The translations under genes were made by a program, and so were the position numbers. Below the pieces are notes generated by a model. It searched no databases. It was not told the DNA's origin and was given only the letters and a program-made list of their open reading frames with translations. DNA of 32,000 bases from an uncultured archaeon (GTDB lineage Archaea > Iainarchaeota > Iainarchaeia > Iainarchaeales > JAAZKV01), in contig CAZKBG010000001.1 of NCBI GenBank assembly GCA_964551375.1, positions 630,001 through 662,000 of the forward strand, in the 5' to 3' direction. This document shows positions 13,942 through 15,280 of this stretch, in pieces (position 1 is the first letter of the stretch; each line of letters begins with the position of its first letter).

Positions 13942-14216
13942 AAAAAGGATTTATTTTCTCAACTGAAGCAGTGGTTACAATAATAGTAATACTTGCAGTG
14001 GCATCAATATTCTCCATGCAGCAGACGGGAATAGAAAACAAAACAACAGCAATGGAAATACAAAACAATTCGCAGGAATCAGCGACGCTTTACTTTAATT
14101 TAGCTCCAACACAGCCAAATCCTTACAACAAAGAAGTTTACTGCTCGCAGGTAACAAGATACAACCAGCCGGCAAAAGTATTTGAAGACAGAAACGTATG
14201 CAGGGGATTTAAATGA
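13938..14216 (+). CDS. pilin-like protein (G|F-type leader)
   Basis: MKKG|FIFSTEAVVTIIVILAV. It has ATGA overlaps on both sides. Confidence 0.5.
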   Translation: MKKGFIFSTEAVVTIIVILAVASIFSMQQTGIENKTTAMEIQNNSQESATLYFNLAPTQPNPYNKEVYCSQVTRYNQPAKVFEDRNVCRGFK

Positions 14217-15280
14217 AAGGATTTGGAGGAATAGTAATTGCATTCGCAATAGTTGCCGCAGCGGCGCTTTTGTTAACAATAAATATCACTACAATAAATT
14301 CTTACTCGTATAAAGAAATAGTGCCTGAAGCCAAACAAACAATCGCAAACTTTGAACTTGTATTAAACCACGCTGCGGAAGACTGCAACTGGGAGCTTGG
14401 AGTGGGGCAACTGCAAAACTGCATTGACTCAAACGCGGCTTCAATACTTGCAAGAATGAACGCCACCGGCGGAGTAAAGTGCACAAAATTAAATAACGCT
14501 ATTCCAGAATCCGACCTTTACACTTACAAATTTGATGTCAACTGTTCAATTGGAACAATTACAGGAAGCAAAAGCCAGGTAAATTTACGAACAAGCAATA
14601 AAATCTTTGTCGGAAAAACAAATAAATATCATGAGCTAAAAACAACCGATACCAATCTGTTCAATGGCGTTGTCGGACTATGGCACCTAAACGGAGACGG
14701 GGCTGATTACAGCGGAAGAGAAAAACATGCAAACAGCATAACTGCAAGTTCTGCTATGGACAGAAACCAGAATCCAAACGGAGCTTATTCATTTGACAAA
14801 ACACAAGGAATTTTTATAACAAAGCCATTTGGGGCGGGATTTATCGGCACAAGCGCAACTATTTTAGTGTGGGCAAAAATGCAAAACACAGGAAATTCAA
14901 TAAAAGCCCCAATCATTGACTTTTACAACAACACTACTGGACTGCACGGCGCATCAATTGTGCAGAAAAAATCTAACGAAATAACTTTTGATTTTGGAAA
15001 CGGGGCAAATGACACAATAACATATGCAGGGCTTACTGGAAACTGGGTAAGTTTAGTTATGACATATAACCAGGCAACACTAAACACTTACATAAACGGC
15101 TCAAAAACAACAAAAGCAAAAAACGGGGCAATTATGATGAATGATTATAATTTAAACATTGGATACAGCCCAGAGGGCTCCACAAGAGATTTTAACGGAA
15201 TGATTGACGAAGTCATTATCTGGAATAGAGTGCTGACTGACAGCGAAATACAAACCCTGCTAAAAAGACAAACAGGCTAA
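14213..15280 (+). CDS. pilin-leader::LamG (concanavalin A-like lectin) fusion protein; candidate pilus adhesin
   Basis: The N-terminus MKG|FGGIVIAFAIVAAAALLL is prepilin-like. The C-terminal ~190 aa match the LamG/Laminin_G_3 pattern (LWHLNGDGADYSG...AYSFD...ATILVWAK...WVSLVMTY...LNTYINGS...FNGMIDEVIIWNRVLTDSEIQTL). Confidence 0.75.
   Translation: MKGFGGIVIAFAIVAAAALLLTINITTINSYSYKEIVPEAKQTIANFELVLNHAAEDCNWELGVGQLQNCIDSNAASILARMNATGGVKCTKLNNAIPESDLYTYKFDVNCSIGTITGSKSQVNLRTSNKIFVGKTNKYHELKTTDTNLFNGVVGLWHLNGDGADYSGREKHANSITASSAMDRNQNPNGAYSFDKTQGIFITKPFGAGFIGTSATILVWAKMQNTGNSIKAPIIDFYNNTTGLHGASIVQKKSNEITFDFGNGANDTITYAGLTGNWVSLVMTYNQATLNTYINGSKTTKAKNGAIMMNDYNLNIGYSPEGSTRDFNGMIDEVIIWNRVLTDSEIQTLLKRQTG

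Follow-up and report, generated by a model that had tools for sequence, protein, structure and literature searches.

We examined a 32,000-nt window of an archaeal contig (CAZKBG010000001.1, positions 630,001 to 662,000), which contains a type IV pilus locus. Within this locus, a block of four short genes (genes 1-4, at 13023-15280) encodes minor-pilin-like proteins, and the last of these proteins carries a lectin-fold domain. The locus includes the following features, in which a slash marks the junction after the leader peptide:

3876-5588, + strand: pilus assembly ATPase of the T2SSE/FlaI type (Pfam T2SSE, E = 1.9e-44).
5566-7612, + strand: two platform membrane proteins (5566-6687 and 6692-7612) with one T2SSF domain each (Pfam, E = 4.7e-22 and 1.4e-18).
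7609-9050, + strand: genes for short pilins that have Q at +1 and E at +5 and are candidate major pilins (8126-8413 and 8547-8855 confirmed).
9114-10226, + strand: class III signal (prepilin) peptidase (Pfam Peptidase_A24, E = 1.5e-13, with Arc_PepC and Arc_PepC_II).
10227-11005, + strand: another pair of pilin-like genes, 10227-10679 and 10682-11005, each encoding Q at +1 and E at +5 (weak Class_IIIsignal matches, E = 0.007 and 0.004; conserved in relatives).
11077-12948, + strand: a trio of a small transmembrane protein, a TctA-like permease (Pfam TctA, E = 1.9e-28), and a JAB/JAMM protein (Pfam Prok-JAB, E = 5.1e-09).
12991-13000, + strand: the A/T box AAAGTTAAAA, a candidate TATA box, 23-32 nt before the ATG of gene 1 (read from the sequence).
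13023-13445, + strand: gene 1, minor-pilin-like, 140 amino acids, MQKG/QLSID, with D at +5 (motif and D5 conserved in 14 of 14 loci).
13438-13941, + strand: gene 2, minor-pilin-like, 167 amino acids, MNKG/QVFSTD, with D at +6 and four cysteines (conserved in 14 of 14 loci).
13938-14216, + strand: gene 3, minor-pilin-like, 92 amino acids, MKKG/FIFSTE, with E at +6 and two cysteines (conserved in 14 of 14 loci).
14213-15280, + strand: gene 4, 355 amino acids, starting with MKGFGGIVIAFAIVAAAALLL and ending with FNGMIDEVIIWNRVLTDSEIQTLLKRQTG.

As the initial annotation had proposed, gene 4 lies in a pilus locus that has its own prepilin peptidase. The ATPase, both T2SSF proteins, the peptidase, and the pilins are all upstream of it, which holds for the window as well as for all relatives whose flanking sequence is long enough. 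Two of the short pilins (8126-8413 and 8547-8855) match Pfam's Class_IIIsignal above the cut-off (E = 2e-06 and 2.1e-07), and the open reading frame at 7609-7755 has a match at E = 8e-4. The genome has a second peptidase gene of this kind, but the one here presumably processes the pilin-like proteins of this locus. (For the ATPase, matches to NCBIfam's FlaI and TadA-like models are below the cut-offs.)

Genes 1-4 are tightly packed: gene 1 overlaps gene 2 by 8 nt, and the other two junctions are 4-nt overlaps (ATGA). Gene 4 is indeed a real gene at the end of an overlapping block. Genes 2-4 have Shine-Dalgarno-like sequences (GGTGA, AGGTGA, and GGGGA) 5-10 nt before their ATG. The A/T box before gene 1 might serve as the TATA box of a leaderless operon transcript. 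(We also scanned for sigma-70 promoters and terminators, and the counts were near the shuffled expectation, but that model is bacterial and is not applicable to archaea.) The N-terminus of gene 1 is related to those of genes 2 and 3 (hhalign), and gene 3 has a weak match to DUF7262 (E = 0.009, Pfam). The order JAB-gene 1-gene 2-gene 3-gene 4-ABCE1, with overlapping junctions, is found in all 15 of the other loci that we examined, which come from three genera. The trio before the operon is also in identical order in four related loci (L001, L030, L032, and L035).

The protein encoded by gene 4 has three parts, which are located in the DNA as follows:

14213-14617, + strand: pilin module, residues 1-135 (leader MKG, hydrophobic helix, second helix, three or four strands, and Cys58, Cys70, Cys90, and Cys111).
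14618-14662, + strand: linker, residues 136-150, GKTNKYHELKTTDTN (from alignments; AF2 pLDDT is below 50 at residues 136-146).
14663-15280, + strand: LamG or ConA-like lectin-fold module, residues 151-355, plus the stop codon (from Pfam, Foldseek, and PDB sequences).

We delimited the pilin module from alignments of 12-17 homologs and from an AF2 model. In the model (pLDDT 77.5), a helix of about 50 residues (4-29 and 33-55) is followed by a second helix (64-85) and an antiparallel sheet (88-134). The initial annotation had described an approximately 130-residue linker domain with four cysteines. The four cysteines (residues 58, 70, 90, and 111) are there, and they are the only cysteines in the protein, but this part is a conserved, globular, pilin-like module, and the real linker is limited to about residues 136-150.

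The lectin fold of the C-terminal module, which was also in the initial annotation, is confirmed by both sequence and modeled structure. Residues 212-347 (nucleotides 14846-15253) match Pfam's Laminin_G_3 (PF13385) with E = 1.9e-19 and 70.7 bits, as compared to a cut-off of 27.6 bits, and the match covers positions 16-151 of the 151 positions in the profile. The orthologs P0002 and P0003 have the same match. In the AF2 model of the full protein, residues 200-355 form a beta-sandwich (pLDDT 70-87) with strands across residues 200-337; residues 160-198 have low confidence. A Foldseek search of the PDB with this model gave 401 matches at E ≤ 1e-3, and the top 50 are all ConA-like lectin, LamG, or pentraxin-type modules. 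Matches to ConA-like lectin domains have E of about 1e-8, and they include PilC from Streptococcus sanguinis (PDB:7oa8), which ranks 26th (E = 8e-8). At the sequence level, the module matches the PDB entries 5hon and 4dqa. The module belongs to the Laminin_G_3 / ConA-like superfamily, with the fold itself taken from the model.

We then examined the distribution of gene 4. The pilin module is present as a single copy, as the fourth gene of the operon, in each of the 16 genomes sampled from the archaeal family, and every ortholog that we found sits in the same pilus context, in agreement with the initial annotation. Among 1.84 billion representative proteins, the pilin module has about 77 true relatives. 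(A locus search with the single gene 4 protein found just one fragmentary relative. When the N-terminal 146 amino acids were used for a word-indexed search, no homolog was found; the protein at full length fell outside the length window, and the short homologs were missed because they share too few 5-mers. A 1,749-residue protein, P0083, seemed to contain nine stretches of the module, but this was a false positive: it is the translation of a 61-residue tandem repeat, and the per-repeat scores are near zero.) The members of this family are annotated as "hypothetical protein" in the databases, and the family had not been named before.

Most of the 77 or so relatives have just 125-150 amino acids and lack LamG, and LamG is also missing from gene 4 in most relatives from the same genus and the same family. 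In other words, the pilin module usually stands alone. Together with its layout of module, linker, and LamG, this means that gene 4 fits the definition of a modular pilin (Raynaud et al. 2021, PMC8179133).

In four lineages, gene 4 has one or two LamG domains, which are attached at one common junction, and all of the LamG forms occupy the identical position between gene 3 and ABCE1. One sample, ERZ27250635, holds a lineage with one LamG together with a lineage with two. In the alignment, the short forms stop 2-4 residues past the last strand, just before the linker, and the LamG forms continue from there. The gene 4 tree requires four changes of state (gains or losses of LamG), so LamG is a recurrent and optional add-on. 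Monophyly of the LamG forms is rejected in an AU test (p = 2e-10), with the caveat that the tested group was defined after the tree was seen. As for the source, multi-LamG proteins from other members of the genus have repeat boundaries that match both the junction LFNGVVGLWHLN and the end of the LamG unit (IDEVIIWNRVL), and two of these proteins have class III-like N-termini. The LamG unit of gene 4 was probably derived from these multi-LamG, pilin-like giant proteins. We also considered the genome's other LamG pilin as the source, and rejected it: only the C-terminal 30 residues align (57% identity).

Our preferred reading, to which we give a probability of roughly 60%, is that the product of gene 4 is a minor pilin built from two modules, which belongs to an archaeal type IV pilus and is a modular subunit of its tip. 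Alternatively, gene 4 might not be processed at all. Its N-terminal helix would then be an uncleaved membrane anchor, and the protein would either be tethered to the membrane as an accessory to the pilus machinery or be a surface lectin that is held in the envelope and not at a filament tip. Several results are in line with this. Gene 4, like genes 1-3, does not match Pfam's Class_IIIsignal (PF04021) at E ≤ 0.1; that profile was built on pilins with Q+1 and E+5. When the N-termini are compared with hhalign, gene 4 stands furthest from the rest, with a low probability for its alignment to genes 1-3, and it lacks an acidic residue at +5. Also, no solved pilin resembles the pilin module: a Foldseek search of the PDB gave no significant matches (the best, at E = 5e-3, were unrelated proteins), and searching PDB sequences with a profile yielded no match, so comparison does not confirm a pilin fold.

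The N-terminus of gene 4, MKG/FGGIVIAFAIVAAAALLLTI, has what a class III signal should have, which is a short basic leader that ends with glycine or alanine and is followed by about 20 hydrophobic residues. Several observations speak against an uncleaved anchor. First, the junction [KR]G/F[GA]G is kept in 17 homologs whose leaders range from 3 to about 25 residues. An invariant [KR]-G-F behind leaders of such unequal apparent length is the pattern of a cleavage site. Second, gene 3 shares the KG/F junction. Third, the translation of gene 4 is coupled to that of three clear pilin-like genes, and a prepilin peptidase is encoded 4 kb away. Finally, the bacterial tip subunits GspK and PilA (from S. 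sanguinis) have degenerate signals as well, and lack Glu5 (PMC9934059). Overall, an uncleaved anchor seems unlikely. The architecture in the initial annotation, a prepilin-like N-terminus joined to LamG, is upheld by the conserved G/F junction and by the Laminin_G_3 match above the cut-off.

If gene 4 is a pilin, what does its LamG module bind? The initial annotation considered it to be a prime candidate for the host-recognition determinant. We believe that this was overstated, because most relatives in the genus and family have a gene 4 that lacks LamG, and because the genome encodes a second LamG pilin, seven pilus-type ATPases (T2SSE), and many other large pilin-like open reading frames. 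Both of the LamG domains in the genome are on prepilin-like proteins. Nor do substitution rates single out the lectin. The initial annotation had suggested a test for elevated dN/dS in the LamG loops. Between the window and the related locus L001, the dN/dS of gene 4 as a whole is 0.145, with 0.131 in LamG and 0.150 in the pilin head (NG86; this is a weak test, as dS is 1.2-2.3, or saturated). With a pairwise value of about 0.13, LamG has no excess over the pilin module, and positive selection is not apparent at the level of the domain.

A second alternative is that LamG is indeed borne by a pilin but recognizes something other than a host cell. It could bind the cell's own glycosylated pilins or S-layer, in a structural or assembly role, or it could capture polysaccharides or other substrates, as bindosome-type binding proteins do. 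LamG and ConA-like folds bind many types of ligands, often in a Ca2+-dependent manner, and substrate-binding proteins with class III signals have been discussed for archaea (PMC13705601). The gene 4 protein itself contains seven N-glycosylation sequons. Also, most of the close relatives do without LamG, so it is dispensable for the core function of the pilus. On the other hand, the only transporter gene that is tied to the operon is the TctA-like gene, which is present in loci with LamG and in loci without it. Furthermore, the closest characterized analog, PilC, is an adhesin for foreign glycans. We judge this alternative to be slightly less probable than an uncleaved anchor.

Returning to the modular tip subunit, the evidence for its position comes from the acidic residue near the start of the mature pilin. 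Genes 1-3 keep this residue (D5, D6, and E/D6, respectively) in 14 of 14 loci, and an acidic residue at +5 or +6 is found in all of the locus's other pilin-like proteins. In gene 4, there is no acidic residue in the first 10 positions, again in 14 of 14 loci. To our knowledge, the role of the acidic residue at +5 has been established for bacterial pilins and not for archaeal pilins. Its absence suggests that gene 4 encodes the capping subunit. The initial annotation had placed gene 4 in a tip complex, and the pattern of acidic residues is consistent with that, but the tip position itself is something that we infer. It is improbable that gene 4 is instead sparsely distributed along the shaft of the filament, decorating the pilus with lectin modules: modular pilins could be located there if the linker is flexible (Raynaud et al., PMC8179133), and the linker of gene 4 is about 15 residues long with low model confidence, but the lack of the acidic residue is specific to gene 4, which also belongs to a four-gene set that resembles priming complexes.

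The most similar characterized protein is PilC, from the PilA-PilB-PilC tip complex of S. sanguinis, which has been described along with the K subunit that lacks Glu5 (PMC9934059). Like gene 4, PilC combines a small pilin module, a short linker, and a ConA-like lectin module (PDB:7oa8; PMC9934059, PMC8179133). Both are encoded in operons with other minor pilins, and one subunit of each set lacks the acidic residue at +5. However, PilC is bacterial and gene 4 is archaeal, and their pilin modules have no detectable sequence similarity. Also, it is the lectin-bearing protein itself that lacks the acidic residue in the archaeal operon, whereas PilC of S. sanguinis retains Glu5, and PilA is the subunit without it. 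And unlike in PilC, the presence of the lectin module of gene 4 varies among close relatives.

The operon can also be compared to GspH-I-J-K (or FimU-PilV-W-X-type) complexes, which similarly have four pilin-like genes in one operon. GspK and gene 4 are each the largest member of the set, contain an extra domain, lack the acidic residue at +5, and are proposed to cap the tip (PMC9934059, PMC8179133). But the extra domain of GspK is an alpha-domain that is inserted in the sheet, while that of gene 4 is a C-terminal LamG. The machinery of the archaeal locus, with a FlaI-type ATPase and an A24 peptidase with archaeal C-terminal domains, also differs from that of the GspHIJK systems. Genes 1-4 do not match the H, I, J, or K families (Pfam, NCBIfam, and PDB), so we do not classify them as members; the apparent resemblance is in function and architecture only.

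The same cargo is known from bacterial pilins: IPR012902 with PF13385 is listed among the frequent architectures of bacterial modular pilins (Raynaud et al. 2021, PMC8179133). These proteins and gene 4 have a common cargo family behind a pilin N-terminus. That survey relied on the bacterial IPR012902 motif and does not mention archaea (PMC8179133). The motif (G/F or G/M, then xxxE) is bacterial, and gene 4 lacks the glutamate. The gene 4 pilin module is a separate, archaeal family.

Among archaea, the Epd-type (system 1) pili of Methanococcus maripaludis involve the peptidase EppA, the minor pilins EpdA-D, and adhesin-like proteins encoded at the locus (PMC4858521, PMC13705601, PMC3875500). 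Both that locus and the one in the window have a dedicated A24 peptidase, Q+1 pilins with Class_IIIsignal (formerly DUF361-type), several minor pilins, and large proteins with binding domains that are predicted to be tip adhesins. At the window's locus, NCBIfam's models for EppA, FlaK, and FlaI score far below their cut-offs, and genes 1-4 do not match any named family.

If gene 4 is a modular tip subunit, then it might work as follows. The class III signal peptidase (9114-10226) would cut the gene 4 protein after Gly3. The four minor pilins would assemble first on the ATPase and platform machine, prime the filament, and end up at its distal tip. [quoted passage not shown] There, LamG would bind a ligand, either a glycan or a protein, that is exposed on a surface or on another cell. 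The LamG unit itself is an optional cargo that has been gained or lost repeatedly at one position.

A bolder version of this idea, which we offer tentatively and which is probably not correct in full, is that the operon is the archaeal counterpart of the HIJK complex, and either evolved independently or diverged beyond recognition. Gene 4 would provide a K-like slot for cargo, and LamG cassettes from the multi-LamG giants would have been plugged into it, duplicated, or lost, again and again. The specificity of the tip would then differ among closely related, co-occurring lineages of DPANN archaea, with switching of partners or surfaces.

How DPANN archaea and other ultrasmall cells recognize their partners or surfaces is largely unknown, and the minor pilins of archaea have been little characterized. 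That a lectin can be grafted onto a pilin is already established in bacteria, so what is gained here is detail and testability rather than a new principle. A small and previously unannotated family of pilin modules is now defined. Furthermore, there is a natural comparison: in one conserved operon, gene 4 has zero, one, or two lectin modules among close relatives, some of which were sampled together. This comparison makes it possible to test what LamG binds, whether it is at the tip, and whether archaeal pili, like the type IV filaments of bacteria, have a capped priming complex. If gene 4 is indeed a slot for cargo, then the exchange of modules would allow related DPANN lineages to switch partners or surfaces.

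[quoted passage not shown] The initial annotation had proposed the same combination of pilin and LamG, with a tip location; its view of the intervening region as a linker and its claim of host recognition did not hold up as well. Reading the sequence confirmed gene 4 as the last of four overlapping ORFs:

13023-13445, + strand: gene 1, first ORF of the block
13438-13941, + strand: gene 2, second ORF
13938-14216, + strand: gene 3, third ORF
14213-15280, + strand: gene 4, 355 amino acids, N-terminus MKGFGGIVIAFAIVAAAALLL, C-terminus ...DFNGMIDEVIIWNRVLTDSEIQTLLKRQTG

The junctions between genes 1/2, 2/3, and 3/4 overlap by 8, 4, and 4 nucleotides. 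An A/T box (AAAGTTAAAA) lies 23-32 nucleotides upstream of the ATG of gene 1, and we saw no Shine-Dalgarno motif before this ATG, which would suit a leaderless transcript. GGTGA, AGGTGA, and GGGGA motifs lie 5-10 nucleotides before the ATG of genes 2, 3, and 4, respectively, as one would expect of genes inside an archaeal operon. Downstream of the gene 4 stop codon comes a T-rich spacer of 39 nucleotides.

The window contains a complete archaeal type IV pilus locus:

3876-5588: ATPase of the T2SSE/FlaI type
5566-6687 and 6692-7612: two platform proteins, with one T2SSF domain each
starts at 8126 and 8547, also 7609: short pilins with matches to Class_IIIsignal
9114-10226: A24 prepilin peptidase with archaeal C-terminal domains
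starts at 10227 and 10682: two pilin-like genes
11077-12948: small transmembrane protein, TctA-like permease, and JAB protein
downstream of the four-gene block: ABCE1, NUDIX, and Pelota (housekeeping)

The NCBIfam models for FlaI, ArlJ/UpsF, FlaK, and EppA all match this locus with scores far under their cut-offs. The locus is a divergent archaeal type IV pilus system and no equivalog of a named one. (The trio of transmembrane, TctA-like, and JAB/JAMM proteins lies between two pilin blocks, and its position is kept in all relatives with sufficient flanking sequence, which are loci L001, L030, L032, and L035. A second T2SSE ATPase, at 22258-23787 on the - strand, has 509 amino acids, E = 2e-37, and a weak match to PilB3_C; no platform or pilin genes lie next to it, and it is placed the same way in loci L001 and L002.)

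The C-terminal part of gene 4 is solidly assigned to LamG, as was first proposed. Residues 212-347 match Laminin_G_3 (PF13385) in Pfam with E = 1.9e-19 and 70.7 bits, where the cut-off is 27.6. In a model of the full-length protein (pLDDT 67), residues 200-355 form a beta-sandwich (pLDDT 70-87), and the model is poor at residues 136-146 and 160-198. Searching the PDB with this model by Foldseek gave 401 matches at E <= 1e-3. The best matches are modules of the concanavalin A-like lectin, LamG, and pentraxin types, such as the lectin domain of trypanosomal trans-sialidase, domain 4 of the arabinanase AbnA, PTX3, and the LamG of PAPP-A. They also include, as a fold class, the receptor-binding jelly-rolls of clostridial neurotoxins, and the minor pilin PilC of S. 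sanguinis (7oa8) ranks 26th. A sequence search of the PDB found 5hon and 4dqa (E ~ 2e-3) across the C-terminal strands.

The N-terminal part had been described as a linker domain of about 130 amino acids. It is a conserved protein module: in a six-frame search of 40 relatives, residues 1 to ~130 match stand-alone ORFs of 130-166 amino acids in nearly all genomes of the same genus. Another 15 loci, drawn from three genera, have the gene order JAB, gene 1 (~140 amino acids), gene 2 (~165), gene 3 (~91), gene 4 (~135-160), and ABCE1. The gap between gene 4 and ABCE1 at these loci is 40-70 nucleotides, and we found no remnant of LamG-coding sequence there. A profile built from 12 gene-4 modules finds one copy in each of the 16 family genomes sampled; elsewhere in the order its matches are all weak. 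Against 1.84 billion representative proteins, HMMER with the module profile gave 78 hits, mostly of 125-150 amino acids. (One of these, which has 61-residue tandem repeats, is a false positive.)

An AlphaFold2 model from the module alignment (pLDDT 77.5) has a first helix (4-55, ~50 residues) with a kink near residue 30, a second helix (64-85), and then three or four antiparallel strands (88-134). We take this outline of alpha-1, alpha-beta loop, and sheet to be that of a type IV pilin. Foldseek found nothing significant for the module model in the PDB (the best E was 5e-3, to unrelated proteins), and the module profile had zero matches to PDB sequences. A pilin fold is plausible from the model. 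Gene 4 has four cysteines (58, 70, 90, and 111), and Gly3, Phe4, Cys90, and Cys111 are invariant among 17 aligned modules. The apparent leader before G/F (the slash marks the junction) varies from 3 to ~25 residues, part of which may be due to the choice of start codon. Such a conserved junction with a varying leader resembles a cleavage site.

The four genes also differ in the residues that follow this junction.

N-terminal patterns of the four genes at 14 loci
gene 1: M.K[GA]/Q[IL]S.D, Asp at +5
gene 2: ..KG/Q.F..D, Asp at +6
gene 3: MKG/F.FS.[ED], acidic residue at +6
gene 4: ...[KR]G/F[GA]G, no acidic residue in the first ten

Every other pilin-like gene of the locus starts its mature part with Q (+1) and carries E at +5. 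In the bacterial four-gene minor-pilin complex HIJK, the K subunit lacks Glu5 and caps the tip (PMC9934059). Since gene 4 also lacks an early acidic residue, we infer by analogy that it would be the topmost subunit, with the role of the acidic residue taken from bacterial filaments, not archaeal pili. The N-terminal 28-56 residues are common to genes 1-3 (hhalign probability 78-95%), and gene 4 is more divergent from them (14-65%). This divergence would be compatible with a degenerate signal on a tip subunit; it may also mean that gene 4 carries an uncleaved anchor. The four-subunit layout of this predicted tip may recur in paralogous pilus systems of the same genome. On its contig C1, the other pilus loci (425810-428022 on the - strand, 464926-466206 on the - strand, 610469-611645 on the + strand, and 870353-873896 on the - strand) have adjacent pilin-like genes with the N-terminal patterns Q..E5, Q....D6, and F....D6. 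The ORF at 425810-426661 is a last, larger protein of the F type with no early acidic residue.

LamG is an optional and recurrent add-on to the gene-4 module. Among the HMMER matches, Pfam finds Laminin_G_3 in four longer cluster representatives:

P0002: the cluster of the window's gene 4 protein, Laminin_G_3
P0022: 586 amino acids, two LamG
P0055: 348 amino acids, Laminin_G_3
P0062: 343 amino acids, Laminin_G_3

The last three lie between gene 3 and ABCE1 in otherwise identical loci, and their closest relatives are short forms, which are homologs without LamG. The gene for one short form, P0024, is complete on its contig, and the operon of another, P0064, matches the P0062 operon in its gene lengths. 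A maximum likelihood tree of 74 modules requires four changes of LamG state, and an AU test rejects a single LamG clade (p = 2e-10, for a group defined after inspecting the tree). In alignments, short forms end 2-4 residues past the last strand, precisely where LamG forms go on. Another representative, P0072 (226 amino acids), has an acidic tail of ~90 residues with no match in Pfam, and the C-terminus of this subunit seems to tolerate varied cargo. (P0079 and P0082, of 176-185 amino acids, have C-terminal extensions that are not LamG and lack Pfam matches; the tail of P0079 is rich in proline and cysteine. An ortholog with 71% identity from a low-coverage MAG, L029/L008 at G004:C52:32-1103, is split into two frames, with a TGA and a stretch of N where module and LamG meet, which is probably an assembly gap and not a real disruption.)

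Between the four lineages, LamG units share only 26-37% pairwise identity and are no closer to each other than to LamG units of other proteins, so identity does not decide between common and separate origins. In the six-frame search of the 40 relatives, the LamG part of gene 4 matches only other, mostly giant, proteins. Its boundaries are those of the repeats in giant multi-LamG proteins of congeners: units start with ...TNLFNGVVGLWHLN... in gene 4 and ...LFDSNLVGLWHLN... in the repeats, and end with ...IDEVIIWNRVL... and ...IDEVAIWNRAL..., respectively. We infer that the cassette likely came from these giants. (They have 1025 to more than 2100 amino acids and include L036 on G009:C5, L037 on G016:C1, and L038 on G009:C3.) Two of them have class III-like N-termini, RA/QSAVETIIVL in L037 and KA/QGSIEYLV in L038, and LamG units in this genus seem to reside largely on pilin-like proteins. 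The window's own genome has only two LamG domains, in gene 4 and in C1:539191-540504 (L006:796-2109). The latter encodes 437 amino acids with the N-terminus MQNKG/QGAIEYLL, and it matches Class_IIIsignal (26.3 bits, over the cut-off) and Laminin_G_3 (E = 5e-16). It is ruled out as the donor, as only 30 C-terminal residues align to gene 4. (It is flanked by an aIF1A-like gene and a RIO-type kinase gene, distant from the pilus loci.)

Gene 4 evolves fast under purifying selection. Compared with the ortholog at L001, it has 66% identity, lower than any other protein nearby (genes 1-3 have 69-73%, and the rest of the neighbourhood has 77-91%). With dS saturated, its dN/dS against L001 is ~0.145 overall; by part, it is 0.131 for LamG, 0.150 for the pilin head, and 0.02 for the N-terminal helix. 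At the level of the domains, nothing points to positive selection.

Bacterial modular pilins are established. PilB (with a vWA domain) and PilC (with a concanavalin A-like lectin domain) of S. sanguinis have been characterised, and a survey found more than 1,200 modular pilins with 264 architectures; PF13385 is one of the cargo domains that it lists for frequent architectures, and it does not mention archaea (PMC8179133). In archaea, DUF2341 proteins of a Methanococcus-type locus were predicted to be tip adhesins (Makarova et al. 2016, PMC4858521). Particular to gene 4 are a defined pilin-module family of narrow distribution, a fixed fourth position in a conserved operon, an N-terminus that resembles a cap subunit, and polymorphism in the presence and copy number of LamG at a single junction.

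The proposal that gene 4 is the host-recognition determinant is weakened, because most relatives do without LamG and because many other surface proteins of the genome are candidates too. This genome (1.09 Mb in 10 contigs, 93% complete) has two A24 peptidases, seven T2SSE ATPases over the Pfam cut-off, the second LamG pilin, and, by a crude scan of N-termini, at least 10 ORFs of 400-1000 amino acids with a pilin-like [KR][GA]/QG[TA]IEYL start. Type IV filament proteins are a very large investment for a genome of this size.
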